A stretch of 64,000 bases of DNA from a virus (lineage: Duplodnaviria; Caudoviricetes). Below are positions 21,631 to 60,991 of the stretch, in pieces. Within the stretch, counting starts at the first letter, position 1, and the number at the start of each line of letters is the position of its first letter. The stretch covers positions 1 to 64,000 of IMG/VR virus record IMGVR_UViG_3300038499_000016; one strand, written 5' to 3'. The position numbers and the translations under genes are program-made. The notes below the pieces were generated by a model, which had not been told where the DNA came from, did not search any database, and saw nothing but the letters and a program-made list of their open reading frames with translations.

Positions 21631-21912
21631 ATGTCCAAAAGATATCAGAAAAAACGCCTTATTTGTTTGTCTGATAGGCAGGAAGCAGTTTTATCTGACC
21701 TATCCGAAGAGCTCGGCATTTCCATGTCGGAGCTCATAAGACGCGGGCTGGATACCTACGTAGAGGGACTCATAAAAGACGGGACTCTTGTCCGTTTTAC
21801 CTTTTCTACAGCGGATAAATCCATTGATCTGGTGTGTTCCAAGGACAAATTTAAGCAATTGTACGAGTATGTGAAACAACATCCCGAGACAATACAGGTC
21901 GCCCAAAAATGA
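21631..21912 (+). CDS. ribbon-helix-helix (CopG-like) DNA-binding protein
   Basis: RLICLSDRQEAVLSDLSEELGISMSELIRRGL. Confidence 0.75.
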   Translation: MSKRYQKKRLICLSDRQEAVLSDLSEELGISMSELIRRGLDTYVEGLIKDGTLVRFTFSTADKSIDLVCSKDKFKQLYEYVKQHPETIQVAQK

Positions 21913-22580
21913 AGCTTTCAGTAATTACGCCCACATGCCGTGGTGTCAAAAACCTGACCCAGCTTTTACGGGACTTCAAAAATCAGACCTTCAAAGACTT
22001 CGAACACATCATAGTGCACGACGGAAAAGTCCCACCTGATGTCCAGGCCTTCATGAAAGACCATGAGAACGACTATGACATCAAGTTCGTGTCTATCCCT
22101 AAAGACATGGGCAATACCAGTATCGCCCCGGGTACTAAGCCAAGAAACCACGGATTATCTCTGGCCCGCGGTGAATATGTAGTATTCTGCGATGACGACG
22201 ATAGGTATAAAGATGTGTACGCCGAAATTCTTGTCACGGGTTGTCGGGACAACATCATCAATGTCGTCCAGATGTCTGCTTCAGAGCACCGTATCAATGG
22301 TGGCAACCCCAGACATATCAAACTCATCCCAGAGGTAGGATTACCGACCTTCCCTATGATCTGTCACGTAGGAACACCCTGCTTCATCGTGAAGCGAGAA
22401 TGGGCCCTTATCGAGCCTTGGCGTGAAGAGCCTGAACACGACTTTCATTTCATCAAACGTATCTGTGACCGATTCAATCTCCTCATAAGAATCGTACCAG
22501 GCATGCTTGTCGACGTGGATGGAGAAGTCACCGTCGGAATGAAAGACTGGGTGTCAATTCCTCCTTTCTATCGGGACTAA
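21909..22580 (+). CDS. glycosyltransferase family 2
   Basis: SVITPT, IIVHDG, RNHGL, FCDDDD. Confidence 0.9.
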   Translation: MKLSVITPTCRGVKNLTQLLRDFKNQTFKDFEHIIVHDGKVPPDVQAFMKDHENDYDIKFVSIPKDMGNTSIAPGTKPRNHGLSLARGEYVVFCDDDDRYKDVYAEILVTGCRDNIINVVQMSASEHRINGGNPRHIKLIPEVGLPTFPMICHVGTPCFIVKREWALIEPWREEPEHDFHFIKRICDRFNLLIRIVPGMLVDVDGEVTVGMKDWVSIPPFYRD

Positions 22581-22583
22581 AAA

Positions 22584-23804
22584 ATGGCGGATCAAGAAAA
22601 ACCCCCAAAAGGGGAAGTCGATAATTGCAGACATCGCCTATTGAAGTATTGCAGGGGTCAAGGACTCGACCTGGGTATGGGCGTGACCAAGATCAAGCCC
22701 GATGCCATTGGCATCGACCTGTATAGCCCCTATGCTGATATGCACGAGGATGCCAGAATCCTGAAAAACTATCCCGATGACTATTTCGATTTCGTGTTCT
22801 CAAGTCATCTTCTCGAAGAGCTTCAAAATACCGAAGCCACTCTCAGAGAATGGATCCGAGTCCTGAAACCGGGCGGCAATCTAGTCCTCTATCAGGCCGA
22901 CAAAGACGTTTATTATCCTCTTGGCCATCCTCAGTGTAATAAAAGACACATTCACCATTTCGGATGGGAAGACCTATGGAGTATTTTCCAGTCGATCGGA
23001 GGCATGAGTCTCGTTCATCACGACAAGTTTAACCTGCATCCCTATAACGAATGGTCTTTTGAACTGGTAGTACGAAAAGGCACCTTATCAGAACCGGAGA
23101 TACCTATGGAAGGCATATCCCTACTCATTCCAACCCTGAACAGACCTAAGAATCTAGAAGATTTCACAATGTCCGTTGAACAAACGGCCAAAGTGCACGA
23201 TCAGATAGAGATCCTCTATGGAATACATGCGGACGATATCGTCAGTAAGACCAAGATTGAAGAACTCAAGGGAAGAGTAAAGATAAGTGTCCGGGCAGAA
23301 ATCATTGACCGACATCCTGATGGAGTACACCTATCCTTCCTTTGGAATCAGATCTATCCCCGAGCTAAATTTCCCATACTCGGATACTTTGGTGATGATG
23401 TTATTTTTCGTACCCCAGGATGGGATGAAGAAGTCCGAAAAGAGTTCGCGGCGGACAAACGACTTCTAGTCTGCTGCAATGACTGTTATCAGCACGGATC
23501 CCAAGCAACCTTGTACTTCACACACAAAATTGTACACGATGCCTTTGGATTCTATTTACCCATGAAGTTCAGACGATGGTTCATGGATACCTTCCTTGAT
23601 CGAGTATTCCGACATTCAGGTAAATTTCGATATCGAGAAGATATTGTCACTGAACACATGCATCCTGAGCGCTTCCCGGAACGTACCGATGATGTCTACC
23701 GAGCCATGAATCATCACAAACAGGCAGATCAGGCTCTTTGGGAATCACCAGAAAACATCAAAGACATTGAGAAATACATCCAAATCTTAAAGGCCATCCC
23801 GTGA
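22584..23804 (+). CDS. SAM methyltransferase + GT2-like fusion
   Basis: GLDLGMG...FSSHLLE..WIRVLKPGG, then SLLIPT..GDDVIFRT..WD. Confidence 0.85.
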   Translation: MADQEKPPKGEVDNCRHRLLKYCRGQGLDLGMGVTKIKPDAIGIDLYSPYADMHEDARILKNYPDDYFDFVFSSHLLEELQNTEATLREWIRVLKPGGNLVLYQADKDVYYPLGHPQCNKRHIHHFGWEDLWSIFQSIGGMSLVHHDKFNLHPYNEWSFELVVRKGTLSEPEIPMEGISLLIPTLNRPKNLEDFTMSVEQTAKVHDQIEILYGIHADDIVSKTKIEELKGRVKISVRAEIIDRHPDGVHLSFLWNQIYPRAKFPILGYFGDDVIFRTPGWDEEVRKEFAADKRLLVCCNDCYQHGSQATLYFTHKIVHDAFGFYLPMKFRRWFMDTFLDRVFRHSGKFRYREDIVTEHMHPERFPERTDDVYRAMNHHKQADQALWESPENIKDIEKYIQILKAIP

Positions 23805-25582
23805 AAAACCTCTGTACCCTTTCTGACTGGAATTATCTGCCAAAAGGCTTGGCCCTGTATAAGTCTTTGGTCAGTACTTCCACAGAGTCCTTCAAGCTCT
23901 ATTATCTATGCTTGGACGAGACTTCCTATAAAAAACTCATAAGACTACGTCTACCAAATATCCTACCCATCAGTCTTCAAACCATTGAACGACAGAATGA
24001 AGAACTCGGAACGGCCCGAGCAAACCGTCCCTATAACGAATACTGCTGGACTCTTGCCTCGTACTTTTGTGATTGGCTATTAAGCAAAGAAGATCTGGAA
24101 CATGTCTGCTACATTGATTCAGACATACTGTTCTACGCTGACATAGACATCCTCTACAAGGAGATAGGACCCAAAGACGTAGGTATCGTAGCCCACCGCC
24201 ACAATGCCGTAGGTGACCGGGATGGAGCCTACAACGTGGGTGTCATCTACTTCAGAGGCAGCAAAATAGGCCGTGAGTGTCTGTACTGGTGGAAAGATGC
24301 GGTACTGCTTAAAAAACATCCTGAGTACTATGGATGTGGAGATCAGAAGTACCTTGAAGGATTCATACCGAGATATGGGATAGATAACATCTGTGTCATG
24401 GACGAGACCTTTGGTCACGGAGCCCCTTGGAACTATAGACTCTATGACTGGAGCACCTACGATCAAGATCATTGCATAACCTGGAATGGTAAGAAGCAAT
24501 CTCTTGTATTCAATCACTTCTCAAGAATGTCCTATGACCTTTCCACCAATACCGTCAACTTCACATCAGGGCAGTATGCAGATCATACATTGAACTTCAC
24601 GGTCTTCAACATACCTCAAGTTCAGAAACTGTATCAAAACTACTACCTGGAGCTCAAGACCATCCATGAGACTTGGATGGTCAACGGCAAGCACATCAAG
24701 CCACTCAAGATTGCCGTAGGCATGATAGTCTTTGAAGGTGAATACATCCTCAAGCAATGCCTTGAATGCATTTACCCCTATGCATCCCAGATACTAATTG
24801 CCGAAGGTCCTGTCCGTTTCTGGCAACAAGAAGGTCGTACAACATCAACCGATGGGACCAATGATATTCTTCATTCATTCCCGGATCCCGATAACAAAAT
24901 CACTATTACTCACGGACAGTACACGGAGAAGGATGACCAGTGCCGGGCCTACATGCGTTTTCTTAGACAGGATATGGACTACATATGGAACGTTGATTCT
25001 GACGAATTATTCAGAGCAGAAGACATTGAAAAAATCATTCAACTCCTGACTGATTACCAGTATACCTCAGTAGGGCTCAAGAGCTGCAGCTTCTATGGGG
25101 GGTTCGAGAGACACATAGGCGGCTTTGAAGAGGCCTGCGATCAATTCCTACGCATCTTCAAGGTCTATCCAGGGTCCACTTGGAAGACCCATCGTCCTCC
25201 AACCATCATACATCCTGATGACGTAAAGACCTTGCCCAACAACCATCTTGATAGCGATACCCTTTGGGAAAAACATGGGGTCAGGATGATGCACTATTCC
25301 TATCTCTTCCCAAAACAGGTCAAGAACAAGATTCATTACTACAAAAATGCTCTACAGGGCAGCAAATGTATTGATAACTACTATGAGCAGGTTTATTTAC
25401 CTTGGGTATTAGGGGACTCCGGAACCCGATATGCCATAGAACAGCGATTTCAGGGCGTTCATGAATATAAACCAGAGTTCAGGACTCCTACATTTACCAA
25501 AGAGTTTGTAGGTCACCATCCAGAGTCTATTCAAAGGGATCTTGAGAAACTACAAGTCTATTTCAACGAGCAACTCAAATGA
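23801..25582 (+). CDS. tandem GT-A domain glycosyltransferase
   Basis: YIDSD..YNVG..GDQKYL domain plus a second domain with VDSDE. Confidence 0.8.
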   Translation: MKNLCTLSDWNYLPKGLALYKSLVSTSTESFKLYYLCLDETSYKKLIRLRLPNILPISLQTIERQNEELGTARANRPYNEYCWTLASYFCDWLLSKEDLEHVCYIDSDILFYADIDILYKEIGPKDVGIVAHRHNAVGDRDGAYNVGVIYFRGSKIGRECLYWWKDAVLLKKHPEYYGCGDQKYLEGFIPRYGIDNICVMDETFGHGAPWNYRLYDWSTYDQDHCITWNGKKQSLVFNHFSRMSYDLSTNTVNFTSGQYADHTLNFTVFNIPQVQKLYQNYYLELKTIHETWMVNGKHIKPLKIAVGMIVFEGEYILKQCLECIYPYASQILIAEGPVRFWQQEGRTTSTDGTNDILHSFPDPDNKITITHGQYTEKDDQCRAYMRFLRQDMDYIWNVDSDELFRAEDIEKIIQLLTDYQYTSVGLKSCSFYGGFERHIGGFEEACDQFLRIFKVYPGSTWKTHRPPTIIHPDDVKTLPNNHLDSDTLWEKHGVRMMHYSYLFPKQVKNKIHYYKNALQGSKCIDNYYEQVYLPWVLGDSGTRYAIEQRFQGVHEYKPEFRTPTFTKEFVGHHPESIQRDLEKLQVYFNEQLK

Positions 25583-26544
25583 TCCAATTGTTCAACATAC
25601 CCAACTACACAATCGATACGTCAGAGTTTAATAATCTCTTACACGATAAGGTCGTTAAGGAATTCGAACAGCGTTTCTGTGAGTATGTTGGAGCCAAATA
25701 CGGATGCTCGATCAACAGTGCCACCAATGCCATATTCCTAAGTCTGAAACTGGAACAGGCAAGCATCATTTCCATACCCAGCATTATCCCTCCCGTCGTC
25801 ATCAATGCTGCTCACCATGCTGGATGTTTCGTTAAACTGACCGATAACGTCGAATGGGTAGGCTACAGTTACATTCTGTATGAAGATCAGAACGAAAGAA
25901 TTATCGATTCTGCACAACGGGTAGACCGCAATCAATACATTCAAGATGCGAATGACGATGACTTGATGATTTTCAGTTTCTATCCTACCAAGCCTGTTGG
26001 CAGCTGTGATGGAGGGATGGTCGTATCAAATAATGGGGATATGATCAACTGGATAAGGAAAGCCACGATAAACGGCACAAGTTGTTCCGAGAACAGCTGG
26101 AATCGATCCCCTCTATTCCCTGGATGGAAGATGTATATGAACTCCATTCAGGCATGGATAGCCCTTAGGAATCTAGAGAAGCTTGATGCCAAGAAGATTA
26201 GACTCAAAGAAATTCGTGATGCCTATAACGACGCTTTAGGATACAAAAACATAAGTGATCATCTCTATCGGATACAGACTAAAAACAACGAAAAATTCAT
26301 AGAAGAAATGAAGAACAGAGGCATCACATGTGGCCGGCATTATGAAGCCACTCATAGAATGCCTGTGTACAACCCGGATAACAGATTCTATTGTCCGCAG
26401 GCGGATTTCACATCTCAAACGACCGTATCAATACCTTTTCACGAAGCTCTGACAGACGAAGATGTTCAGACCGTCATAAAGAACGTGAGGGACCTCCATG
26501 AGCCATGCAGATTCTTGGAAAAATGGACAGCATGTCTTCGATAA
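25579..26544 (+). CDS. DegT/DnrJ family sugar aminotransferase
   Basis: NSATNA, IDSAQ, SFYPTK, DGGM. Confidence 0.9.
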   Translation: MIQLFNIPNYTIDTSEFNNLLHDKVVKEFEQRFCEYVGAKYGCSINSATNAIFLSLKLEQASIISIPSIIPPVVINAAHHAGCFVKLTDNVEWVGYSYILYEDQNERIIDSAQRVDRNQYIQDANDDDLMIFSFYPTKPVGSCDGGMVVSNNGDMINWIRKATINGTSCSENSWNRSPLFPGWKMYMNSIQAWIALRNLEKLDAKKIRLKEIRDAYNDALGYKNISDHLYRIQTKNNEKFIEEMKNRGITCGRHYEATHRMPVYNPDNRFYCPQADFTSQTTVSIPFHEALTDEDVQTVIKNVRDLHEPCRFLEKWTACLR

Positions 26545-27100
26545 GCAGCTTGATCTCAATCTTGAATATTTCAAAACCAATGAGTATCCTTCCCACTGGA
26601 AGACCTTCATCGAACTCATGTCTGCTGCCTGTCGACTAATGCCCAATATCAAAAAGATGCTCGATATAGGATGTGGGTGTGGAGCCTACTTTGAGCTCTG
26701 TCGAAGGGTATTCCCTACCATAGAGTACTCCGGATATGACTACTCTTCACGTGCCATCGCACTGGCAAAGAACTATTGGGGATGTGAGAGATTTTATGAA
26801 AAGGACTTCTGGAAACTACAACAGGCAGATATAGAGGGCTTTGATATTATTAACATCGATGCGTTGTTCGCAATCATGAACAATGCAGATGAAGCCATTG
26901 CCTATTTGATGTCCCTAAAGCCTAAGGTGATCATCTTAAACCGCATAGACGTGCATAGTGGCGATAGCAATTACGACGTCTACAAGGCCTACGATGAAAT
27001 ATACACCTACCAATTTTGGCATAACCAAAACAAATTCTTTGCAATGCTCAAAGGATACAATGTCCGCCAAGCAGGAAAAACATATCTCATATGGCTGTGA
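26498..27100 (+). CDS. class I SAM methyltransferase
   Basis: LDIGCGCG. Confidence 0.85.
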   Translation: MSHADSWKNGQHVFDKQLDLNLEYFKTNEYPSHWKTFIELMSAACRLMPNIKKMLDIGCGCGAYFELCRRVFPTIEYSGYDYSSRAIALAKNYWGCERFYEKDFWKLQQADIEGFDIINIDALFAIMNNADEAIAYLMSLKPKVIILNRIDVHSGDSNYDVYKAYDEIYTYQFWHNQNKFFAMLKGYNVRQAGKTYLIWL

Positions 27101-27675
27101 ATGGACATACTTTTAACGAGTCGGCTATCACGTCCGACAGCATAGTTCTCGACATAGGCGGGAACCACGGTGACTTCTCCCGAGAAGTCCTGGAAAGGTT
27201 CAAGTGCTATGTAGAGTGCTTTGAACCGGATCAAGATGGCTGTAGCCATATCCGTCAGATGATCAACGACCCCAAGTTCACACTGATAAATAAAGCTGTC
27301 GCTGGCATCTCTGGTAGACGATCCTTCTACCGAGTAGGACCAATCAATGGCGGGAACAGCCTACTTCCCGGATCCCGGGAATATGGTAAAGACCCCGGGA
27401 ACACAATCTTTGACGTAGACGTTGTAAGCTTAGATTCCATCCTGGATAAATATCAAACGGTAGACCTGATAAAGATGGATTGTGAGGGAGCGGAGATAGA
27501 AATCATAGAAAAGACTCAGCAGTGGTCAAAAGTCAAACAGATCACCATAGAGTTTCATGACTTCTGTTTCAAAAGCATAACGCTTAAAGACGTCGAGCGA
27601 TGTGAAGATATCCTCAAATCCTATGGATTCAATTCCCAATATCAGAAGCACGAAGACCATCTATTCTACAGGTGA
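27091..27675 (+). CDS. FkbM family methyltransferase
   Basis: DIGGNHG, FEP, KMDCEGAE, EFH. Confidence 0.9.
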   Translation: MAVNGHTFNESAITSDSIVLDIGGNHGDFSREVLERFKCYVECFEPDQDGCSHIRQMINDPKFTLINKAVAGISGRRSFYRVGPINGGNSLLPGSREYGKDPGNTIFDVDVVSLDSILDKYQTVDLIKMDCEGAEIEIIEKTQQWSKVKQITIEFHDFCFKSITLKDVERCEDILKSYGFNSQYQKHEDHLFYR

Positions 27676-28316
27676 TCATGTTTAAAAAAGATCTTGATTT
27701 GGTTATGTCCTTACACGGCAAATACAGCTTCAAGTCTCCACTATTGGATGCTGGAGGACTCAATAATCCCACCATTGCCGATTATGAAATTTCGGCAAAA
27801 AAGGCCGTCGAGATTACAGTCACCGATAGTGAAGGAACCAGAGTCATAAAGGTTCCTCATAGCAACCAATCGGACAGATATCTGAAAATAAGCCGGCCTT
27901 GGTCCTTTATTGATCACAACTATACTACCCTTAATCCTCAGGATGGAGACCCCTATATAGAAGATCTCCCTGAAAAATATCCGGAAGCATTTTCCACCAT
28001 CATTATGGTATCTGTTTTTGAACACGTGAATAATCCGTATGAAGTATCGGATGCCATATTCAAAATTCTAAAGCCTGGCGGATACTTCTTCAACTCTACC
28101 CCATTTCTATTTCCCTATCATCCTTCTCCCGAAGATAACTTCCGTTTCTCTCCATTGGCCTTAAGAAGGATCCACGAAAAAAGCGGATTTCACTGGCTGG
28201 AAGGAGACTTCCACATAAATCATTCAACAAAAGAAGGTATCGGAGACACTAATCCTGCCAATTACGGAGCACCTCAGGCTATAATGGCCTCCTACGCGCT
28301 ATGTAAAAAAGATTGA
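27672..28316 (+). CDS. SAM methyltransferase-like protein
   Basis: SVFEHV..LKPGG..TPFLFPYHPSPEDNFRF. Confidence 0.8.
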   Translation: MIMFKKDLDLVMSLHGKYSFKSPLLDAGGLNNPTIADYEISAKKAVEITVTDSEGTRVIKVPHSNQSDRYLKISRPWSFIDHNYTTLNPQDGDPYIEDLPEKYPEAFSTIIMVSVFEHVNNPYEVSDAIFKILKPGGYFFNSTPFLFPYHPSPEDNFRFSPLALRRIHEKSGFHWLEGDFHINHSTKEGIGDTNPANYGAPQAIMASYALCKKD

Positions 28317-28323: not shown

Positions 28324-29115
28324 ATGGCAATACCTGTTGTTTTCATTCACAGAGGCGACCAAGACTATTTCAAGGCGGTTGTGAAACAAACAAGATCCAA
28401 AAACCGGACCATAGTTATAGGAAGCAACAAGGTATCGGACGAATACTTTATCCCTATAGAAGACTATAACACAGAAGCTCGTAAGTTCGAACAAATCTAC
28501 GAGCACCTGAGCACGAATCCTCATACAGCAGAGCTCTTATGCTTTACCAGATGGTTTACCCTCTTAGACTTCATGAAAAAAGAAGCCCTTCCTGTATGCC
28601 TCTATCTTGATTCAGATGTACTATTCTTTGGAGACGCTTCCCAAGAATTCAAAAAGTTTGACCAATTTGATTTCACACTAAGTCACAGATGCTGCGGCAG
28701 CAACTCCTTCTTCACCCTAAAAGGTCTAGAAGGATTCTGTGACTTCCTAATGGCCTTCTATCAAAACAGAACATCCTACGACTACGAACGAGTAGCCGCC
28801 CACTATCACATACGAAATAAACATGGACTCGGAGGCGGGGTATGCGACATGACCCTGCTTGAATTCTACGCTTACAAAATCTGCCCGGGAAAAGTCGGAG
28901 AGATGATGTATATCGTAGACGGGTCAACTTATGATCACAACATCAATACCTCGGATCAGTATTATGAAATGGACCCGTATAAGGGCATCAAAAATATTCA
29001 ATGGATAGACGGTCTCCCCCATTGCAAACAGCTATCCAGCGATAAACTTATTCGGTTCAATACCCTACACTTTCAAGGGCAAGCAAAGCAGTACATAACA
29101 GGATACGCTCGATGA
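28324..29115 (+). CDS. GT-A-like glycosyltransferase
   Basis: CFTRWF, YLDSDVL, DMT, LHFQG. Confidence 0.7.
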   Translation: MAIPVVFIHRGDQDYFKAVVKQTRSKNRTIVIGSNKVSDEYFIPIEDYNTEARKFEQIYEHLSTNPHTAELLCFTRWFTLLDFMKKEALPVCLYLDSDVLFFGDASQEFKKFDQFDFTLSHRCCGSNSFFTLKGLEGFCDFLMAFYQNRTSYDYERVAAHYHIRNKHGLGGGVCDMTLLEFYAYKICPGKVGEMMYIVDGSTYDHNINTSDQYYEMDPYKGIKNIQWIDGLPHCKQLSSDKLIRFNTLHFQGQAKQYITGYAR

Positions 29116-30916: not shown

Positions 30917-31299
30917 ATATCTACAATCTGAAGACCTTTGATGACGAACGTGGAAGGCTGAGCCCCCTGGAGTTCAAGGATCTACCTTTTATACCGAAAC
31001 GAGTATTCTTCGTTACGCAGGTTCCTGAAGGCACCGCCCGAGGCGGGCACGCCCACTACAACACTCAGCAGTTTCTAATATGCCTCAGCGGAAAGATTAC
31101 CGTGGTTCTGCACAATGGCCGGTGGTCAGAAGAACAAGTCATTTATCCCAACCAAGCTGTGTTCGTAGATAAGATGATATGGGACTATCAGATTTTTGAA
31201 ACTGGGCAGGATCACTTAGCAGTACTCTGTTCCACGGAATACGATCAAGCGGATTACATCATGGATTTCAAATATTTCCAACAACTGAACGTTGAGTAA
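30913..31299 (+). CDS. FdtA/QdtA-like sugar 3,4-ketoisomerase (cupin)
   Basis: DERGRL..PF.PKRVF...RGGHAH...YDxxDYI. Confidence 0.9.
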   Translation: MNIYNLKTFDDERGRLSPLEFKDLPFIPKRVFFVTQVPEGTARGGHAHYNTQQFLICLSGKITVVLHNGRWSEEQVIYPNQAVFVDKMIWDYQIFETGQDHLAVLCSTEYDQADYIMDFKYFQQLNVE

Positions 31300-48709: not shown

Positions 48710-48722
48710 AACAAACGCTCCT

Positions 48723-49583: not shown

Positions 49584-49596
49584 ATCAGTAGATTAT
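49584..49596 (-). promoter_or_regulatory. phage promoter-like motif ATAATCTACTGAT (leftward)
   Basis: left arm of an 18/20 inverted repeat (49581-49600 / 49611-49630); heads the 18 kb minus-strand glycan operon. Confidence 0.75.
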
Positions 49597-49614
49597 TAGG
49601 TATGGGACGGCCTA

Positions 49615-49627
49615 ATAATCTCTTGAT
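49615..49627 (+). promoter_or_regulatory. phage promoter-like motif ATAATCTCTTGAT (rightward)
   Basis: right arm of the inverted repeat; upstream of 49668. Confidence 0.75.
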
Positions 49628-49667
49628 ACTTCCTATAAGGAATACGCAAACACCAAAAAGCAGAAGC

Positions 49668-53663: not shown

Positions 53664-53916
53664 GGATCGCGTATCTGCTAAGCCCAGGCTGTCGGATTTC
53701 TCGGAATGCGTCCAGAAAATCCGACAGGTCTTTTAAGCATTTGAATGTAATCATTTGATGGACATCGGAAAACTTTAAAGAAACAGAATATTTTGGCTCG
53801 AGCTCAGTGACGAGACTTTTAATAATGTGATCAAGATCAATCTTAAGGAATTTCCTAAGAATATATTCTTGATCTTCTGCGCGCAATCCCTCTAAGACAT
53901 CACAATACTTGTTCAC
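53635..53916 (-). CDS. hypothetical protein
   Basis: GTGA-coupled start at 53916. Confidence 0.55.
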   Translation of the reverse strand: MNKYCDVLEGLRAEDQEYILRKFLKIDLDHIIKSLVTELEPKYSVSLKFSDVHQMITFKCLKDLSDFLDAFREIRQPGLSRYAILKRPTVESA

Positions 53917-54101
53917 TTTTCTTTCTTCCGAGCAAACTGTTCCAGAACTTTTTTGATTTTCTTGATGTTCCAAAAACGAGGGGACCGCTTAAAATCACAG
54001 GCGCACCACTTACCTTCTACCGTTAGCTTACACGCAGTGCATTTTGTAGCCTTGCAGAACTCTACCAACAATTCAAAATCACTTTTTTTCTTGTTCACCA
54101 C
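53913..54101 (-). CDS. small Cys-rich protein
   Basis: C..KCTAC...CAC...P..W; coupled to neighbours. Confidence 0.6.
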   Translation of the reverse strand: MVNKKKSDFELLVEFCKATKCTACKLTVEGKWCACDFKRSPRFWNIKKIKKVLEQFARKKEK

Positions 54102-54342
54102 TTTTTATATTCCATCGAATTAAGTTATCGATTTCTTGTTTCAGGTCAGACCGACGGTAATCCTCTTTAACAGGATCACCTAAAAAAATGTAAACATCAC
54201 ATAGAGTTGTCACAAGATTTCTGTTACGTTCCTCTGATTCCAGATACATTTTAATATATCGCTGTCTGTCAACATACCATAAAACACAATAAAGACTCCC
54301 AAGTACTAATCCTGCCAATGTCCATAATACTACATCAGACAT
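54079..54342 (-). CDS. small membrane protein
   Basis: N-terminal hydrophobic helix; GGAG RBS. Confidence 0.65.
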   Translation of the reverse strand: MSDVVLWTLAGLVLGSLYCVLWYVDRQRYIKMYLESEERNRNLVTTLCDVYIFLGDPVKEDYRRSDLKQEIDNLIRWNIKSGEQEKK

Positions 54343-57196
54343 GGAACAACTCCTCTTTCCAACGCCGAGCTACATCTGCCCAGCTATACTTCTCAGTATT
54401 CTTGAATCCTCTCTCAGACCACTCTCTCCAGTAGTACTGATCAGTCATCAGTTTAATGGCCTGATCTAAAAATTGCTCCCGACCTTCTTTCGAATAAGGC
54501 CAGTAAGCTTCACCATTCCCAAGAAGGATACCACTATCCCCTATAGTAGTGATCGTTCCCGCGTACTTATTGGCAAGAACAGGCACCCCAGACCTCTGAC
54601 ACTCAATTCCGGTTATCCCGAACGTCTCTGAAAAAGCAGATGCATATAGCCATAAAGAAGCCTTTTTAGTCTCTATGGCCAAATCCTTCTGCCCTACCCG
54701 ACCGTGATAATATACGCCCTCCTGACACATCGCCTGCTCAAGTTCATCAATCTTCTTGAGCCCCTCCTTATCCCCTTTCTGCTCACAAGACTTCCTATAA
54801 TTCAGAGTGCCATAAAAAATGTGCAGCTCTAAATCAGGAACCGCCTTCTTTATAAACGGAAAGAGATACAAAACATTATCCAAACCCCTATCCAGAGAAG
54901 ACGACCAGTGCAATCTGTGTGGATGCCGTTCAACCTGTATCGAATCAAACTTTTCAAAACAGATCCCATTCGATGTCAGAGCCCACTTATCCTCAGGAAT
55001 CTTATGGTAGTCTTTCACAAAATCCCAATGCCACTTACTCAAAACACAGAACTTGTCCACCTTATCGAGAAAAAGCTGGGTCTTCTCTGAAAGCAGCCAC
55101 ACATCATGGATCATCACAAAGACTTTACCCGCCCTTATAGGGAACCGCAAAGTATCCGTAGTTCTGGACGATATGAAATAATCTATCCAGTGCTGTTCTA
55201 TGTATTGAGGATACTCGGTATAATGGAGATAGGGTATGTCCCCATCACTCAATCCTCGTTGTGGGCAATCAGCAAAAACCGTGACCCTATAGTCCAACTT
55301 CTGAAGTTCCCTGGCAAGCATCACCGCCCATGTCTCAGATCCTCCTATACCTCCCTCATCAACATTCCTGAAATCCCACGGCTGCCACATAGGCCCTGTG
55401 TAAATGACAACACTCTTCCTACCCCACAATGCATTGAGATGCTCATTAGTCTTCTTGTCTGCAGCATGATAGGATCCAGGGTCCTCAGCCTCAAGCAATT
55501 TTCTTGATACGGCACCCTGATGAAAGACGAATGACCTGTATGTCTGAAGGACCTTATACCCCTGCTGACGTATCCTCCGACATAGGTCTACATCTTCTCC
55601 ACTGTTCGTGAATTCCTCATTCAGAAGCCCTGCCTTATCTAAAGCCTCCCTCCGAATAAGAGTGCAATAGAACGCTACCCATTCCAAATCCTTTTCATTG
55701 GTATAAGGAGACTGATAAGCATATATCTGAGGTATGATAGGAATAATCTGCTCAAAAGTATTCACCCCAGGAAGTAACTCTACTCCACCGATATTGAAAG
55801 ACAGATTATGGGTCCATCCACGATCGCAATTAGAAAGAGGTCCTACAACCCCAACCTTGCCCTTACAGGCATCCACCATATGTCTCAACCAACCCTTACT
55901 AACAATCACATCATCATTCAGGATCATCACGTAAGGATTCTTACCCGCCTTAATACCTGCATTCACAGCCTGAGCAAAATTGCACCGATCCCGCTTTATG
56001 TATGTGATATCCCCCTGTTCCGAGAGATACTTATGTAACTCTTCATCGAGTCCATTGTTCACCACAATAGTCCGATACATCACATCAGTACAAGCCCTGA
56101 TGCTATCAAGACACAGCTTCAGACCCCGTAGATTTTTGTAGGTCGGTATGACTATGTCGACCTTCTTGGTATCCTGAAACGCGGATAGCCACTTAGATCC
56201 GATAGCCTCTAAAGAATAGCCCTTAGCAGCTATCAAAGCCCTCTGACCGAGTTCTCTTCGGATCTCTAGATCCTTAAGACTCTCCAGATGCTGTTTCCAT
56301 TCATCCTGGTCAGTAGCTATGAGGCAGCATCCTGGATGCTTCTCTAAGACTTGTAGATAGGCATACAGAGGTGAACAGATGACAGGTTTCCCTAATGATA
56401 GGGCTTGGGTCAAACGGTTATTGGACTTGGCGGGCTGGGTCTGATAGTTTGCCGGAACGATGATGATGTCAGCCCTCTTTAGATGCCCAAGCCAGGTATT
56501 ACGGTCCCACTTGATATCAGCGTTGTCCCACTCATGGATCGTAGTCAGAGTCATACCAAGTTCAGTAATCATAGGGCGGAGTTCTTCAGCCGAAACCGAG
56601 TTACCCCCGTAGCCTATCCAGTAGACTTTCAGAGGTCCCGCCTTCTCATAGGCAACTAACCATGAATGAGGGTTTTCCACTATAGTTACCCCAGGAAGGA
56701 CTTCTTCAAATTCTTTCCTGCCTATGTATCTAAGATGGAGCTCATTATCATCCGGTTTTGCCGGCGTAGTCGCCAATAGAGTTCCGCCTGGTTTAAGGAC
56801 ACGTAGGATCTCTTTAAGGGCCTTATCCAGATCAAGCACATGTTCTAAGATCTCACCAGCTATGACCACATCAAATAAGGCGTCTTCAAACTCAGTATCT
56901 TCTATGGGACGAACAAAGCACTCGGCCTTAGGAGCGTTCTTCTTCGTGTTCTCAACGAAGAAGGTAGCGATATCTATGGCTGTGACGTGGCATCCGACCT
57001 GTTCGGTCAGATACTTAGCTAGACCTCCGTTAGAGCACCCACAATCGAGGACTTTGTCTGTAGGCCTGATGTACTTGAGGTAGAACTCGGTACGATGCCA
57101 GTGAGGCCCTTCAGGACCAAACTTATCCAGATAAGGATAAGCAGGGGCATGGTCCTCGTGCCATTGTCGGTACTCTTCAAAAGTTTTTGGAGCCAT
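54335..57196 (-). CDS. multidomain enzyme: methyltransferase + C-terminal half of a GT-B + GT2 + GT4-like GT-B
   Basis: LDCGC..GEILEH; VYWIG..KSNNR..GKPVICSP; IVIPT..LNDD..GEDVD; GGSET..SSLDRGL..ETFGI..E. Confidence 0.88.
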   Translation of the reverse strand: MAPKTFEEYRQWHEDHAPAYPYLDKFGPEGPHWHRTEFYLKYIRPTDKVLDCGCSNGGLAKYLTEQVGCHVTAIDIATFFVENTKKNAPKAECFVRPIEDTEFEDALFDVVIAGEILEHVLDLDKALKEILRVLKPGGTLLATTPAKPDDNELHLRYIGRKEFEEVLPGVTIVENPHSWLVAYEKAGPLKVYWIGYGGNSVSAEELRPMITELGMTLTTIHEWDNADIKWDRNTWLGHLKRADIIIVPANYQTQPAKSNNRLTQALSLGKPVICSPLYAYLQVLEKHPGCCLIATDQDEWKQHLESLKDLEIRRELGQRALIAAKGYSLEAIGSKWLSAFQDTKKVDIVIPTYKNLRGLKLCLDSIRACTDVMYRTIVVNNGLDEELHKYLSEQGDITYIKRDRCNFAQAVNAGIKAGKNPYVMILNDDVIVSKGWLRHMVDACKGKVGVVGPLSNCDRGWTHNLSFNIGGVELLPGVNTFEQIIPIIPQIYAYQSPYTNEKDLEWVAFYCTLIRREALDKAGLLNEEFTNSGEDVDLCRRIRQQGYKVLQTYRSFVFHQGAVSRKLLEAEDPGSYHAADKKTNEHLNALWGRKSVVIYTGPMWQPWDFRNVDEGGIGGSETWAVMLARELQKLDYRVTVFADCPQRGLSDGDIPYLHYTEYPQYIEQHWIDYFISSRTTDTLRFPIRAGKVFVMIHDVWLLSEKTQLFLDKVDKFCVLSKWHWDFVKDYHKIPEDKWALTSNGICFEKFDSIQVERHPHRLHWSSSLDRGLDNVLYLFPFIKKAVPDLELHIFYGTLNYRKSCEQKGDKEGLKKIDELEQAMCQEGVYYHGRVGQKDLAIETKKASLWLYASAFSETFGITGIECQRSGVPVLANKYAGTITTIGDSGILLGNGEAYWPYSKEGREQFLDQAIKLMTDQYYWREWSERGFKNTEKYSWADVARRWKEELFHV

Positions 57197-57241: not shown

Positions 57242-58087
57242 TTAATTGATGATTTCCAGATCCTCAAAACCAAAGGCTGAGAGTTTATTGAGGTCCAGTT
57301 TATAGATTCTGAGAGGCTCGATATTACGTCTGATGAGGCCCAGCCTCCGAGATTCTTCTTCAAGATTCTTGATGGTCTGCTTCAGTGTATCAAGCTTTTT
57401 CACGTATTTCTGCAGCAGACTTCTCAGAGTACCTATCCGAGCTATCGCGGCATCTTCTTTTGTGCTATCAAGAGTATCCTCTATATCAAGAATAGCATCA
57501 GGAGAAGAAGTCCCAAGTCCAATACTTCCCGAAACTCCACAAGGGTCTGTTGTGCCACACAAACCTTGGATCCCTGTTGTACCTTGAAAACTGTTCATCG
57601 TGTAGCACGCAGAGGCTCCTACAATACCTTGAACTATTGACTCTTCCTTTTTCATGAACTCATCAAGTTCATCAAAACACGGCTTAAAGGCATCAAAGCC
57701 TTCCTCGAAACTAACGGCATGACCTCCTAGTTTTTGTGTCGTTACTTTATTGAAATCAAAAACAACATCACCACATTTTTTGACTATCTCATCTATCTGT
57801 CTTTGGAAAGGCTTGAGAAGGGTTTCCTTCTCATCATGACGCTCCACATAGAACAAATCCATTTCTCGAAGAATTTGTCTCTTCTTCTCAATGAACTCCT
57901 CTATCTTCGTCGCTATGCCTCTGTATTCCAGGACCTTCTGGATGATCGACTTTACCCGAGCATCAATGGCCTGCTGTACTTCAGAGCCTTTCTTCTCAAA
58001 CAGGATACCGATAATAGTGCCCTCAATGCCCGAAGCTGTGCAGAGAGGATCGTCAGCACTGATTCGCAACTGAGATCTGTAATCCAT
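57242..58087 (-). CDS. hypothetical coiled-coil protein
   Basis: 281 aa, AAGGAG RBS, short Gly-x-y stretch. Confidence 0.7.
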   Translation of the reverse strand: MDYRSQLRISADDPLCTASGIEGTIIGILFEKKGSEVQQAIDARVKSIIQKVLEYRGIATKIEEFIEKKRQILREMDLFYVERHDEKETLLKPFQRQIDEIVKKCGDVVFDFNKVTTQKLGGHAVSFEEGFDAFKPCFDELDEFMKKEESIVQGIVGASACYTMNSFQGTTGIQGLCGTTDPCGVSGSIGLGTSSPDAILDIEDTLDSTKEDAAIARIGTLRSLLQKYVKKLDTLKQTIKNLEEESRRLGLIRRNIEPLRIYKLDLNKLSAFGFEDLEIIN

Positions 58088-58387: not shown

Positions 58388-58795
58388 TTAACACCGTTTT
58401 TCAAGCAACCAAGCAAGATACCGTAACCATTCCGGAATGCACTTAGTTACATAATAGGAGTTCGGCGTACTGTCTACTAAGCGCATTTTAGATATGATAT
58501 ATTCTAAACACTGAGATATTGTCACTCCACTACTCAACAATTCTTTCATCTCCTTCGCATTTTTCTCGCTGTAGTAATCCTCACTAGGACCTATACCAGT
58601 ACTTCCAGATACAAGAGGCGGTATTTCCAAACACTTAGCATTTCCAACTCCTTGAATACCTCGAACTGCTTGAATATTATGCAGAGCCTCATGTACTTCT
58701 ATTATTCGTTCCAATTCCCCAAAGCCAGCCGTACAGGTTTGAGCTACAGGATTTTGCGCTACACCTGCTTTTTCCATCGTGGGGTCTGAACTCAT
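58388..58795 (-). CDS. hypothetical protein
   Basis: ATG 58795 with AAGGAG RBS in ATGA overlap. Confidence 0.6.
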   Translation of the reverse strand: MSSDPTMEKAGVAQNPVAQTCTAGFGELERIIEVHEALHNIQAVRGIQGVGNAKCLEIPPLVSGSTGIGPSEDYYSEKNAKEMKELLSSGVTISQCLEYIISKMRLVDSTPNSYYVTKCIPEWLRYLAWLLEKRC

Positions 58796-59016
58796 ACAAA
58801 CTCCTTCTGAATGTTTATTGGGTCCGTCTTCGGGAAATGATAAGTCCATCCATGTCCTCTAGGACATACGAGATCATAATAGACCCCATGCCAGCCGTAC
58901 AGTATCTTCGATTTGGGAAACCCACACACATGGCAAGGACCGTACTCCTCAATAGGAGCAACATTCAATTCCTGATAGGGATTATGATTCCCAGGCGTCT
59001 TCGATGACTTCAACAT
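58792..59016 (-). CDS. small zinc-ribbon protein
   Basis: CHVC...CPRGH; start uncertain. Confidence 0.55.
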   Translation of the reverse strand: MLKSSKTPGNHNPYQELNVAPIEEYGPCHVCGFPKSKILYGWHGVYYDLVCPRGHGWTYHFPKTDPINIQKEFV

Positions 59017-60991
59017 TTGGATTCACCACCCTCGTCTGTTCAGCTAAGACATGAGAACAACATAATACTTTATCACAGAGTCCCAAAGTCTCTTTGACCC
59101 ATGGAAATTCAAAGATAGACTCACAGAGATCGGCATACACCGTCTTACCATTCTTCTTAAGATCACGAACAGCGTTATAGTCCCCTTCCGAGAAGGACTT
59201 ACCCACAATCGCAATGTCATACCCATCCCTGAGTATGGCCTGATAGTCCACTATCTTTGACCAATACCCCTGCGACTTGAGCCACCGGTCAACATTCAAA
59301 ACACGTATCCGAGTCTGAGCAGCATCCCAATTCTCAACAGAAATCCACCCTATCTTAGGCCCAACTTGCGCCTTAATAGCCTTGACACTGATAGAAGGCG
59401 TTCCCCATCCATCATAATTCTCAATGCTGTGTACGAGAAACCCCGCATCTGTTAAGAGTATATTAATCTCACTATTCGAGAACCCTGAACGATGAAACTG
59501 CGCCTCATCAGGCTCCCCAGCCTGCCCCTTCTGAATCCCATAAATAGTACACTTGAACCAATGACGGGTCTTAAAGAAATTCTGATGATTAATAGGAGCA
59601 TCCAAATAACTCCTACAGCATTGCTCAAGATCAGGGATCTTCAACAGAAGCTCTCCACCCGGCTTCAATACCCGATACCATTCCTTCAACGTATCCCTGA
59701 CATCATCAAACGGCAGGTGCTCAAGGGCATGCTCTGAATGAATAGCAGCAATAGTTCCGGACTTATAAGGGATGTCACTGAGATCGAATACTTCATCTAC
59801 AATCTTACCCCTGAAGATATCGACGTTCACATAACCCGGGACAGACTTATCACCACAGCCTAAATTCAGCTTCTTACCTTCACCATCCTTACGATATCGA
59901 TCACCCGTGATAGTTGGTAAGAGAATATTACGATTGTTGATTGCCCGGGAATCCTTAGGCCGAGCTCTCAATACCTCATCGTTGTGCTCAAAAGCCTTCC
60001 GAACATTGCCTATGTTGTTGTAACACACGCAGAGCTGTAGATGTGGCAGCCAGCCATAATACTCAGGCTGATAGGATGCCAGCAATTCACCAGGCTTTTC
60101 CACAGAAAGACACATTTCAAACCAGTGTATAGCCTTATTCCACTGCTGCCTGCCTATATAATAGTCTCCCAACTGATAGTAGGGCTCTGCACGGCGGGGC
60201 TCTATTTTTATGGACTCGAAGATACAACGAAAGAACTCTGCATCATTATGAATCTGCAGATTACAGAGTGCCAACCGATACCAAGCATAATAGATGTCTT
60301 CCCAAAACCCATTTGACAGTCGTACGAACTCGGTCAGGCACTGAATAGCCTTATCAGTTTTCCCGAAATCCGCGTACTCTTTCCCGAGATAATAAATGTT
60401 CCTGGAATTGATGCCCTCTTTAATCTTTCCTTCCCCATCTAGTACAATACGCTCTAGAATTTCTAGATTACGTTCAGACGTCCCCCGCTGCTTATGGTGC
60501 TGGATAGGAATGTTCTCTATCCTCTGCCGGTCCCGAAGCGGCACACATTCATGAATGGACTCTTCCCACTTCCTGTTCAAGGACCGGCGTATGAACCGTT
60601 CCCGAGGAACCACACTGATAACTGCGCCAAACTCATCCCGGGCATAGTTATAGGGCATGATAACCATGTCCACATCAGATAGCTTGATACGCTTTATCTT
60701 CTCAACATCCTCAGGATTAATGGTATCATCCGAATCCATCCAGAAGATGAAGTCTCCGATCGTACATAGGCTAAAAGAGTAGTTTCTAGCCGCGGAAAAA
60801 TCGTGAATCCATGTGAAGGTATGTACGACCGGAGTGTACTCTTTAGCTATCTCGATAGATCGGTCCTTAGAACCCGTGTCGACTATCACATACTCATCGA
60901 CAAAGCCTTTGACGCTGTCTAGGCATGCCTTGAGGGTCTTCTCGGCATCCCGTACGATTATCGCGAAGCTAATCTTGTGCCCGTCTATCAT
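58982..60991 (-). CDS. GT2 + TPR + methyltransferase + N-terminal half of a GT-B
   Basis: IIVRD..VDTGSKD..DFSAARN..DSDD..IHE; TPR helices; LNLGCG..HALEH..LKPGG; C-terminal AAQTRIR..ADLCE..VIEDAWE. Confidence 0.88.
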   Translation of the reverse strand: MIDGHKISFAIIVRDAEKTLKACLDSVKGFVDEYVIVDTGSKDRSIEIAKEYTPVVHTFTWIHDFSAARNYSFSLCTIGDFIFWMDSDDTINPEDVEKIKRIKLSDVDMVIMPYNYARDEFGAVISVVPRERFIRRSLNRKWEESIHECVPLRDRQRIENIPIQHHKQRGTSERNLEILERIVLDGEGKIKEGINSRNIYYLGKEYADFGKTDKAIQCLTEFVRLSNGFWEDIYYAWYRLALCNLQIHNDAEFFRCIFESIKIEPRRAEPYYQLGDYYIGRQQWNKAIHWFEMCLSVEKPGELLASYQPEYYGWLPHLQLCVCYNNIGNVRKAFEHNDEVLRARPKDSRAINNRNILLPTITGDRYRKDGEGKKLNLGCGDKSVPGYVNVDIFRGKIVDEVFDLSDIPYKSGTIAAIHSEHALEHLPFDDVRDTLKEWYRVLKPGGELLLKIPDLEQCCRSYLDAPINHQNFFKTRHWFKCTIYGIQKGQAGEPDEAQFHRSGFSNSEINILLTDAGFLVHSIENYDGWGTPSISVKAIKAQVGPKIGWISVENWDAAQTRIRVLNVDRWLKSQGYWSKIVDYQAILRDGYDIAIVGKSFSEGDYNAVRDLKKNGKTVYADLCESIFEFPWVKETLGLCDKVLCCSHVLAEQTRVVNPNVEVIEDAWES

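Follow-up and report, generated by a model that had tools for sequence, protein, structure and literature searches.

A 39-kb glycan-synthesis island in a megaphage, a possible cytoplasmic system for glycosylating virion proteins

The island and its source genome

The stretch of viral DNA analysed here comprises 64,000 nucleotides (positions 1 to 64,000 of IMG/VR record IMGVR_UViG_3300038499_000016) and is called the window below. Between 21.9 and 61.0 kb it carries an island of about 40 genes for predicted glycosyltransferases (GTs), S-adenosylmethionine (SAM) methyltransferases and sugar-modifying enzymes, which may constitute a system for the glycosylation of virion proteins in the cytoplasm. 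The first-pass annotation, made from the sequence alone, had treated this region as a single 39-kb unit. It is instead composed of a widely conserved two-gene core (54-61 kb) and a hypervariable accessory block (22-54 kb).

The window represents the first 64 kb of one linear contig of 108,693 bp (G000). IMG/VR and CheckV put the completeness of this virus record at 23%, corresponding to a genome of about 470 kb. To the left of the island are genes for a tail fibre (999-4247), a virion structural protein and a tRNA nucleotidyltransferase. To its right follow RtcB, a protease-like giant protein, a collagen-like fibre (98416-101697) and the portal protein (102627-104504). Portal identity is 45% with a 485-kb uncultured huge phage, 40% with Tunturiibacter phage Tunturi_5 and 26% with Bacillus phage G, and there are IMG/VR fragments with portals that are 65-70% identical. 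The whole contig is collinear with a complete relative from IMG/VR (G001, 469,617 bp, with direct terminal repeats). As it is collinear with a complete genome bounded by such repeats, and as phage genes (portal, protease-like, tail fibre) flank the island on both sides, the contig is neither a chimera nor host DNA and represents a piece of a megaphage of about 470 kb. The original label "phage" was correct as to the viral origin but has to be narrowed to a fragment of such a genome.

A conserved two-protein core

Domains were called with Pfam on 40 open reading frames (ORFs), supplemented by NCBIfam and two Atlas look-ups, and transmembrane segments were sought with a 19-residue Kyte-Doolittle scan. 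The core and its neighbours (TPR, tetratricopeptide repeat; aa, amino acids) are:

54335-57196, minus strand: core protein 2, 953 aa, with a methyltransferase, the putative C-terminal half of a GT-B domain, a GT2 domain (chondroitin-synthase-like) and a GT4 domain (Pfam; PDB profile)
57242-58087, minus strand: coiled-coil protein with a central Gly-rich collagen-like stretch (G-I-Q-G), 41% identical beside the core in G001
58388-58849, minus strand: 153-aa protein with a short G-I-Q-G stretch
58982-60991, minus strand: core protein 1, 669 aa, with GT2 and TPR, a methyltransferase and a Rossmann-like C-terminus, the putative N-terminal half of the split GT-B (Pfam; PDB profile; AlphaFold/Foldseek)
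61745-62458, minus strand: HExxH metallopeptidase-like gene with a weak Peptidase_M91 match, preceded by a weaker promoter-like motif (62460-62478)

The 669-aa protein has more than 1100 homologues, many of them 50-56% identical over the full length, which are encoded on contigs of 200-590 kb; some contain inteins. That the whole island is lineage-specific, as the absence of its DegT and GT2 genes from LR745208 and LR756508 had suggested, is refuted for the core by these homologues, although it still holds for the accessory block outside the subclade of G000 and G001. More than 550 relatives were found by an alignment-based scan of IMG/VR, while single-sequence scans of this database with the 669-aa, the 953-aa and two flank proteins found nothing. 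For the comparison of related loci, 79 viral loci with a GT2-TPR gene were fetched, several of which are near-duplicates. In 50 of these, the homologue of the 669-aa protein is accompanied by one of the 953-aa protein. The HExxH gene is kept upstream of the core in four relatives, distant ones included (G001, L020, L051, L055). One near-complete relative (424 kb, 98% complete) has the core only and no DegT gene.

In eight distant relatives, the core pair is a single ORF of 1294-1474 aa. At the fusion junction, the C-terminus of the 669-aa protein (about residues 546-668) continues directly into residue ~180 of the 953-aa protein, and region ~186-340 of the latter matches by profile the C-terminal half of GT4 enzymes in PDB. 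Because the two halves are contiguous in the fused ORFs, and because of this profile match, we take the C-terminus of the 669-aa protein to form one half of a split GT-B domain and residues ~186-340 of the 953-aa protein to form the other. A methyltransferase domain occurs on either side of the break, and these are absent or moved in the eight fused relatives. In five of the eight, those with mapped flanks (L048, L051, L056, L058, L061), the fused gene lies inside a virion operon, where its neighbours are homologues of window ORFs 17799 and 17155/16343/15737.

The two proteins with G-I-Q-G stretches (57242-58087 and 58388-58849) could be scaffolds, substrates or parts of a fibre. Three small Cys-rich ORFs of 62-77 aa (53913-54101, 58792-59016 and 60988-61221) are found amid the core genes, one of them with a weak FYVE-type zinc-finger match; in a tblastn survey, they were not seen beside the core at other loci. 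Locus L026 has three tandem copies after the fusion. In L015 (an IMG/VR record of 210,938 bp, class provirus), a collagen-like ORF with 294 G-x-T/G-x-Q triplets is located 6 kb upstream of the core pair.

Relationship of the GT2-TPR head to protein glycosyltransferases

The head of the 669-aa protein consists of a GT-A domain (Pfam Glycos_transf_2, E 8.6e-17, residues 8-147) which is directly followed by TPRs (Pfam residues 200-297; helices 196-362 in the structure model). Its DXD motif (D86, D88, D89) and the glycine motif for SAM binding are invariant across 22 homologues. The protein is predicted to be soluble (maximal 19-residue hydropathy 0.91, no transmembrane candidate).

When the family profile was compared to PDB, the closest matches were GmaR (E 3e-35), SunS (5e-28) and a ThuS-like protein (9e-21); other GT2 structures reached 5e-10 or worse. 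An AlphaFold model, for which 22 homologues were available, has a mean confidence (pLDDT, predicted local distance difference test) of 88. The top six Foldseek matches of this model are SunS/ThuS structures (E ~1e-17 to 5e-15), with ~385 aligned columns that cover the GT2 and the helical domain, and with a TM-score of at most 0.68 on the target. The next matches are TPR-bearing protein O-GTs, e.g. SPINDLY and OGT. In addition, SPbeta yolJ (SunS) was matched directly in the homologue search. By profile and fold, the head is of the SunS/ThuS/GmaR type and nearer to characterised polypeptide GTs than to polysaccharide GT2s, and we regard the 669-aa protein as a candidate protein-priming enzyme.

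SunS and ThuS are S-glycosyltransferases of glycocin peptides, and these two enzymes as well as GmaR and SgtA all modify polypeptides in the cytoplasm. GmaR of Listeria, which has a GT-TPR layout, O-GlcNAcylates flagellin (PMC9638930). In C. difficile, SgtA (GT-A plus TPR, with its gene beside bclA3) adds O-GlcNAc to Thr within the GPT repeats of the collagen-like BclA3 (PMC7157674). Stand-alone GT2-TPR homologues are found in the cultured phages PaBG (Pseudomonas; gp263), Tunturi_5 (gp35) and HRDY3 (Pseudomonas); the gene for PaBG gp263 is positioned between tail-fibre and head-protease genes.

A promoter-like motif common to island units and virion genes

The motif (T/G)AATAATC(T/A)NNT(A/G)ATA, with the core TAATAATC(T/A)NNT(G/A)ATA, occurs in 10 copies on the contig, compared to 0.1 in shuffled sequences (~100-fold). 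All copies are intergenic and co-oriented with the genes, and most are found 42-53 nt before the start codon (full range 15 to 474). The exceptions are two at 15 and 20 nt, one at 474 nt and one which overlaps the annotated ATG at 49602. Sites are at window positions 4560, 16686, 17110, 21566, 21598, 49583, 49615 and 62460 and at contig positions 79921, 85182, 85529, 101730 and 105359, those at 62460 and 101730 being weaker copies. Two inverted pairs mark boundaries of island units:

21565-21612: back-to-back motifs at the left island edge, one facing the virion gene 20268-21551 (minus strand) and the other facing island unit 1 (plus strand)
49582-49629: two perfect outward-facing motifs between unit 2 and unit 3

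As ATG 49602 falls within the spacer of the latter pair, the true start of the ligase gene that opens unit 3 is probably downstream of it.

The motif precedes the tail-fibre operon, several virion genes and island units 1-3, and a weaker form is present before the collagen-like fibre gene. Unit 4 is preceded only by a weaker copy with four mismatches (62460). The motif is confined to virion and island units and was not found in the RtcB/nucleotidyltransferase block. In G001 it occurs 11 times in 100 kb, always gene-oriented, and one of these copies (296,803) precedes an island unit. We infer from this distribution that the island units are co-regulated with virion genes.

Candidate acceptor proteins

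The fibre encoded at 98416-101697 contains 145 collagen-like triplets of the (G-Q-T)(G-V-Q) type, 72 of which are G-x-T, and 15 more collagen-like triplets are found in ORF 108022-108621. Collagen-like ORFs with G-x-T/G-x-Q triplets, some with more than 100 Thr positions, occur within 10 kb at 33 of the 79 GT2-TPR viral loci and at none of 19 bacterial control loci.

A second candidate site is D-(G/A/S)-T. This tripeptide is threefold enriched in the non-island proteins of the contig (66 cases with 21.9 expected) and not in the island enzymes (7 with 6.8 expected). The same is seen for G001 (non-island proteins 40 vs 16.5 expected, island proteins 4 vs 5.8), while the contrast is absent in ten other loci, which include core-only relatives and those without GT. 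The enrichment therefore follows the two genomes with an island, which is suggestive for a sample of two. Several small proteins from virion regions have D-(G/A/S)-T at 10-20 times the expectation (14790-15332 and 15335-15733 in the window; 85530-86006, 96794-97180 and 108022-108621 on the contig).

Membrane steps and DNA modification genes

The first-pass annotation had noticed neither a multi-pass flippase or polymerase nor an undecaprenyl-phosphate transferase, and this is borne out by hydropathy and by profile searches. No ORF with more than two hydrophobic segments was detected across the 108.7-kb contig, and no multi-pass protein among the ~50 ORFs of the corresponding G001 island. The Pfam families Bac_transf, Glycos_transf_4, Polysacc_synt (Wzx) and Wzy_C are absent from the contig, from G001 (100% complete) and from G002 (98%), and Wzx/Wzy-type genes are thus lacking in two complete or near-complete relatives as well. 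Controls were positive; for the priming transferases, they responded in 9 and 12 of 14 genomes. No flippase, polymerase or exporter was found with Polysacc_synt, Wzy_C and hydropathy, ABC transporter families not being included in the profile search. One trait of O-antigen and capsule loci is present, namely the combination of enzymes that modify sugars linked to nucleoside diphosphates (NDP-sugars) with several GTs in one locus.

A ThyA-family pyrimidine hydroxymethylase is absent from the contig and from the complete genome G001 (controls positive). A search for Tet_JBP carries no weight, as its positive control was silent. Outside the island, ORF 5188-8082 (964 aa, 43% identical in G001) combines D5-like and Mom-like DNA-modification segments with homing-endonuclease segments, and probably hosts an intein or an endonuclease insertion.

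Gene content of the accessory block

The accessory block covers 32 kb (21.9-53.7 kb) and contributes about ten GTs and nine methyltransferases beyond the core. Identities to G001 are from tblastn (SDR, short-chain dehydrogenase/reductase).

21631-21912, plus strand: ribbon-helix-helix protein, 93 aa, first gene of unit 1, possible regulator (Pfam RHH_3, E 1.4e-4, above cut-off)
21909-22580, plus strand: GT2 at the island edge, 62% identical in G001 (Pfam E 8.9e-15)
22584-23804, plus strand: SAM methyltransferase with C-terminal ~270 aa that have no assignment; N-terminal part 65% identical in G001 (Pfam)
23801-25582, plus strand: two-domain GT, N-terminal GT8-like (sub-cut-off) and C-terminal GT2 (Pfam)
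25579-26544, plus strand: DegT-family aminotransferase, shortened to 321 aa, with profile positions ~58-163 missing (Pfam, NCBIfam)
26498-28316, plus strand: three consecutive methyltransferases (class I, FkbM-type, class I; Pfam)
28324-29115, plus strand: ORF with a weak GT8 hint (Pfam E 0.06)
29112-30050, plus strand: GT47, exostosin-like (Pfam E 2.8e-17)
30047-30916, plus strand: ORF with a weak GT11 hint (Pfam E 0.035)
30913-31299, plus strand: FdtA/WxcM-type cupin, NDP-4-keto-6-deoxyhexose 3,4-ketoisomerase family (Pfam E 4.4e-32)
31268-32137, minus strand: dark ORF, last of unit 2; H-I-R-R recalls GT11/GT23 fucosyltransferases by motif reading (no Pfam/PDB match)
32153-33097, minus strand: STELLO/RGP-like putative GT, family mostly viral (Atlas feature score 0.99 to viral clusters carrying STELLO/RGP)
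33061-34362, minus strand: B12-binding radical SAM protein, class-B methylase-like (Pfam, NCBIfam; CX3CX2C at residue 163)
34359-35432, minus strand: full-length DegT sugar aminotransferase, nearest to PseC/LegC and 4-aminotransferases (Pfam E 1.5e-97; NCBIfam below equivalog cut-offs)
35429-36001, minus strand: SAM methyltransferase (Pfam)
35994-36881, minus strand: ORF with a weak GT9 hint (Pfam E 0.049)
36878-37855, minus strand: SDR, epimerase/reductase-type NDP-sugar enzyme; Ser...YxxxK but no T-D-E by motif reading (Pfam, NCBIfam)
37852-39296, minus strand: two SAM methyltransferases (Pfam)
39293-40150, minus strand: N-formyltransferase with intact H-x-S-x-L-P-x-x-R-G motif (Pfam, NCBIfam)
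40113-40940, minus strand: GT9 family (Pfam E 3.7e-6, above cut-off)
40909-41769, minus strand: radical SAM protein with PqqE/SPASM-like N-terminus (Pfam, NCBIfam; CX3CX2C at residue 23)
41756-42517, minus strand: dark ORF of a rare family, 45% identical in the G001 island (3 homologues among 5.8 billion proteins; no PDB match)
42527-43501, minus strand: GT9-like fold, family mostly viral (Atlas structure, TM-score 0.71 to GT9 cluster)
43567-44319, minus strand: GNAT acetyltransferase (Pfam E 1.3e-17)
44437-45084, minus strand: DegT remnant, 215 aa, with about half of the fold missing (Pfam)
45397-45702, minus strand: 101-aa ORF of unit 2, weak DUF4254 hint below cut-off (Pfam E 0.008)
45695-47009, minus strand: two methyltransferases, one of class I and one borderline Methyltransf_24/CmcI-like (Pfam)
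47025-47654, minus strand: dark ORF; G-G-W-C recalls arylamine N-acetyltransferases by motif reading; 27%-identical homologue in the G001 island (no PDB match)
47699-48745, minus strand: SDR, GDP-fucose synthase/GalE-like, 54% identical in G001 (Pfam, NCBIfam)
48723-49532, minus strand: GT2, first gene of the ~18-kb unit 2, 55% identical in G001 (Pfam)
49602-53663, plus strand: unit 3, with a PaaK/CapK-like ligase (49602), a DUF362 protein (50908) and an NDP-sugar 6-dehydrogenase (52335) (Pfam, NCBIfam)

The 11 SAM-methyltransferase domains originally counted for the island are exactly those detected by Pfam (ORFs 22584, 26498, 27091, 27672, 35429, 37852, 38514, 45695, 46326, 54335 and 58982), the one in 46326 being borderline (25.3 bits, cut-off 26.3). 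The earlier figure of about 18 GT-like domains is fair as an upper estimate but not as a firm count. Nine were found by Pfam (21909 GT2; 23801 GT8-like, sub-cut-off, plus GT2; 29112 GT47; 40113 GT9; 48723 GT2; 54335 GT2 plus GT4; 58982 GT2). Three more are supported otherwise (42527 GT9-like fold; 32153 STELLO/RGP-like; the GT-B split between the core proteins). About five are weak or seen by motif only, comprising sub-threshold hints at E 0.035-0.06 (28324 GT8, 30047 GT11, 35994 GT9) and ORFs 31268 and 41756, which are GT-like by motif reading alone. Three DegT aminotransferases are present as described, with only 34359 being full-length; the shortened copies (25579-26544 and 44437-45084) may be decaying or act as non-catalytic partners. 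The FdtA-like isomerase, the formyl- and acetyltransferases, two SDRs, the nucleotide-sugar dehydrogenase, two radical SAM enzymes and the CapK-like ligase of the first description were all matched by Pfam or NCBIfam. Both radical SAM enzymes (33061 and 40909) retain CX3CX2C. The dehydrogenase 52335 is the sole island enzyme above the NCBIfam cut-off, and the ligase 49602 is of the PaaK/CapK/F390 adenylating type (E 1e-30, below the equivalog cut-off).

From this gene content, FdtA, DegT and a formyl- or acetyltransferase could yield a 3-acylamido-3,6-dideoxyhexose, and the three proteins of unit 3 are a candidate route to a uronic acid that might then be amidated or acylated. Pfam and NCBIfam detected no nucleotidyltransferase among the island ORFs. 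There is also no clear 4,6-dehydratase in the island; neither SDR (36878, 47699) has the T-D-E motif, so that such a role of these two enzymes is not supported by motif reading. The starting NDP-sugars would therefore have to be supplied by the host or by genes in the 77% of the phage genome that the contig does not cover.

G001 has an island of ~42 kb (285.9-327.8 kb) with ~50 ORFs at exactly this site, flanked by its homologues of 61745/669-aa on one side and of 20268 on the other. The ends of the island are conserved; genes kept in G001 are 21909 (62%), the N-terminal part of 22584 (65%), 48723 (55%), 47699 (54%), 41756 (45%) and the dehydrogenase (35-39%), which adjoins the core in G001 and L013. 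About 28 of the 40 island genes have no counterpart in G001. Its cargo includes NeuB, two PseB-like dehydratases, one DegT, CMP-transferase-like proteins, a PIG-L deacetylase, a sulfotransferase and a thymidylate-kinase-like gene, an observation on syntenic islands of the G001 type which also covers loci L012, L091 and L092. Judged by these genes, the G001 island encodes a nonulosonic-acid-type (NeuB/PseB) pathway, typical of flagellin glycans. The comparison indicates that the island consists of a conserved anchor and a swappable sugar cassette which is exchanged between related megaphages.

Within 34-48 kb, in the accessory block, GC is 0.38-0.41, while it is 0.43-0.49 in most other parts of the window. 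Paralogue pairs inside the island are all less than 35% identical, which rules out recent amplification or duplication. Outside the island, a small GT-like protein (345-992, phrog_1574) with weak GT2/Anp1 hints adjoins the tail-fibre gene 999-4247. No tRNA genes were found on the contig, and megablast revealed no close DNA relative among isolated phages. Host assignment through a DegT contig scan was uninformative, as the best matches, from Ignavibacteriaceae, were only ~34% identical.

Interpretation

We consider it probable, at roughly 0.6, that the island provides a phage-encoded and fully cytoplasmic glycosylation of virion proteins, in which a conserved multi-GT core is fed by a hypervariable sugar cassette. 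The four transcription units would be switched on late in infection, together with the virion genes. From nucleotide-sugars of the host, the accessory enzymes would make unusual donors with amino, deoxy, uronic and methylated sugars. The first sugar would be put on Ser or Thr of virion proteins by the GT2-TPR head, most plausibly at the G-x-T triplets of the collagen-like fibres and perhaps, in neck and tail proteins, at D-(G/A/S)-T, and the remaining GTs and methyltransferases would lengthen and cap the chain. A lipid carrier, flippase or exporter would be unnecessary because finished particles exit by lysis. The variable block would then serve as a serotype locus of the virion surface. In its most specific form, the proposal is that a ~450-kb megaphage lineage has a self-contained, hypervariable virion serotype locus of ~40 genes, with which collagen-like fibres and further proteins of the virion exterior are given long, heavily methylated and N-acylated heteroglycans without a membrane step, primed by a SunS/GmaR-type GT2-TPR assembly-line enzyme that is common, in fused form, to hundreds of other phages. 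This version we put forward tentatively, at a little under even odds.

The cytoplasmic acceptor, likely the virion, had already been suggested in the first-pass annotation, and the SunS/GmaR kinship, the fusion within virion operons, the common motif and the lack of membrane steps speak for it, as sequence evidence for a putative glycan on a putative acceptor. Several points weigh against our proposal. GT9/GT2/GT4 and DegT/FdtA are equally typical of lipopolysaccharide (LPS) and capsule loci, and such peripheral enzymes can use host lipid-linked intermediates without a phage membrane protein. The lack of a nucleotidyltransferase and of a clear 4,6-dehydratase in the island leaves the pathway reconstruction incomplete, and only 23% of the genome is in hand. 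The "late" timing of the motif is assumed from its association with virion genes. The collagen-like fibre gene is 37 kb from the core, and collagen genes also occur at three of eight portal loci of the same lineage; the count among the 79 loci includes near-duplicates and has no phage-wide background. For D-(G/A/S)-T, the enrichment is confined to the two genomes that have an island (n=2).

The enzymes might instead act, at the cytoplasmic face, on lipid-linked intermediates of the host LPS core, O-antigen or capsule, with export by host MsbA, Wzx or ABC transporters, and the remodelled envelope might keep other phages or grazers away. Lipid A-core is the normal substrate of GT9 enzymes, which are not membrane proteins. 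GT2, GT4, GT9, DegT, FdtA, SDR, the uridine diphosphate (UDP)-sugar dehydrogenase and the CapK-like ligase all belong to families from O-antigen and capsule loci, which the variable content between conserved flanks also resembles, and remodelling is the published reading of sugar clusters with 15-22 genes in cyanophages and other jumbo phages (Iyer et al. 2021, PMC7824862; PMC12801897). However, the anchor enzyme is of the SunS/GmaR peptide/protein type and not a polysaccharide GT2, the core is fused inside virion operons, the units have their motif in common with virion genes, and priming transferase and exporter are missing even in the complete relatives. A lytic megaphage would also seem to gain little from re-coating a cell about to lyse. 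Envelope remodelling is thus unlikely in our view, though it deserves to be kept in mind.

We regard as quite improbable that a host protein such as flagellin, pilin or the precursor of an S-layer or adhesin is glycosylated in the cytoplasm to block receptors or take over the host. GmaR and FlmG-type enzymes do modify flagellin, and the NeuB/PseB-type pathway of G001 would lead to the classic flagellin glycan, but the core gene is found in virion operons and, in many relatives, beside phage collagen-like fibre genes, core and virion genes have the promoter-like motif in common, and an outlay of ~40 genes for a transient change of the host appears hard to justify. Slightly less probable still is a small glycosylated product, be it a glycocin-like peptide, an aminoglycoside-like or glycolipid metabolite or a cytoplasmic polymethylated polysaccharide. 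SunS and ThuS are the closest folds, and SunS makes sublancin in the prophage SPbeta, whose yolJ was matched directly; the small Cys-rich ORFs of unit 4 might be read as peptide genes, the B12-radical SAM enzyme, DegT and the many methyltransferases recall aminoglycoside pathways, and mycobacterial methylated polysaccharides are built by soluble GTs and methyltransferases. Against such a product, the contig has no multi-pass protein and no exporter, peptidase-ABC transporter, immunity gene or polyketide/non-ribosomal peptide synthetase, the tblastn survey showed no conservation of the small ORFs alongside the core, and the core is kept in more than 550 viral loci beside virion genes, unlike bacteriocin cargo. 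Sugars on hydroxymethylated or otherwise activated phage bases, the alternative offered by the first-pass annotation, are the least probable of all and very improbable. Phage GTs can build diverse DNA glycans (bioRxiv 10.1101/2023.12.21.572611; PMC13326640), and a Mom-like domain is present in ORF 5188-8082, outside the island, but the ThyA family is absent from contig and G001, the anchor has a TPR protein-binding domain and SunS/GmaR kinship, and the island is located in the structural and not in the replication module.

If virion proteins are indeed the target, the system would exceed by far every protein-glycosylation system known from prokaryotic viruses, and bacterial viruses would have their equivalent to the glycosylation of Mimivirus fibrils. 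Many jumbo-phage sugar clusters which have been read as host-surface modifiers would then be virion-coating systems, with the SunS/GmaR-type GT2-TPR as a searchable marker that more than 550 IMG/VR loci carry. Variable "serotype" glycans on virions would bear on adsorption, environmental stability, decoy binding and the immune recognition of therapeutic phages. Multi-GT assembly-line proteins and a soluble-only pathway are possible tools for cytoplasmic glycoengineering. Given the homologues in the cultured phages PaBG, Tunturi_5 and HRDY3, the idea is directly testable.

Comparison with known systems

A literature search found no description of the megaphage island or of a fused GT2-TPR multi-GT protein. 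SunS, ThuS, GmaR and SgtA resemble the N-terminal 360 residues of the 669-aa protein in being soluble and in having GT-A with DXD followed by TPR, the likeness to SgtA being taken from its published description. The genes sunS and sgtA are encoded beside those for their substrates, sunA and bclA3; G-x-T collagen-like genes are within 10 kb of the GT2-TPR gene at 33 of the 79 viral loci, and here the fibre gene is 37 kb away. The difference is that the known enzymes are stand-alone and add one sugar, whereas the head is here joined to a methyltransferase and half a GT-B and has a partner with three more GT units. GmaR's antirepressor domain is absent.

In mycobacteriophages too, soluble GTs encoded by the phage presumably act in the cytoplasm and modify capsid and tail proteins of the phage itself. 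Their virion glycans have reportedly been shown chemically (Freeman et al. 2023, Cell Host Microbe), and to our knowledge phage-encoded virion glycosylation has been shown only for this group. The first-pass annotation had described the characterised virion-glycosylation loci as small, and those of mycobacteriophages do consist of few genes (PMC11256854, PMC12619734). The present system differs by its ~40 genes, its own sugar-modifying pathways and its 11 methyltransferase domains, and is predicted from its genes.

Giant eukaryotic viruses also encode rare bacterial-type amino and deoxy sugars together with GTs in clusters of clade-specific content, and use them on surface fibrils of virions of very large size. 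Chlorovirus glycans frequently contain methylated sugars. Such clusters have been described for the fibril glycans of Mimivirus and other Megavirinae and for chlorovirus capsid glycans (PMC10117803, PMC8456856, PMC9614988). They differ by their eukaryotic hosts, by belonging to the unrelated Nucleocytoviricota and by other priming enzymes, the anchor here being a SunS/GmaR-type GT2-TPR.

The LPS/capsule clusters of jumbo phages comprise 15 genes in P-SSM2 and 22 genes with 13 GTs in S-SCSM2R (PMC7824862, PMC12801897). They are likewise large gene sets, in which many GT families are combined with SDR epimerases/dehydratases and cupin isomerases, and they are polymorphic among related phages. 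The island differs by its larger size, its protein-type GT anchor, its position in a virion module and the motif in common with virion genes. Nucleotidyltransferases and kinases occur in the published clusters but are missing from this fragment.

BclA carries a methylated, N-acylated 4-amino-4,6-dideoxy sugar on G-P-T collagen repeats. Its anthrose-rhamnose system in Bacillus anthracis and the flagellin islands (Campylobacter/Aeromonas Pse/Leg; Caulobacter FlmG, PMC7591256) have soluble-only machinery in common with the system described here. They too are hypervariable islands with amino-sugar or nonulosonic-acid genes, methyl- and acyltransferases, in which a TPR-bearing protein GT modifies a filament subunit before export. 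These systems are cellular, however, and FlmG and Maf are not GT2 enzymes; the presumed filament here is a phage fibre, and GT and methyltransferase domains are far more numerous. As a whole, the system appears most like mycobacteriophage virion glycosylation, the fibril clusters of Megavirinae (PMC10117803) and the flagellin and exosporium islands.

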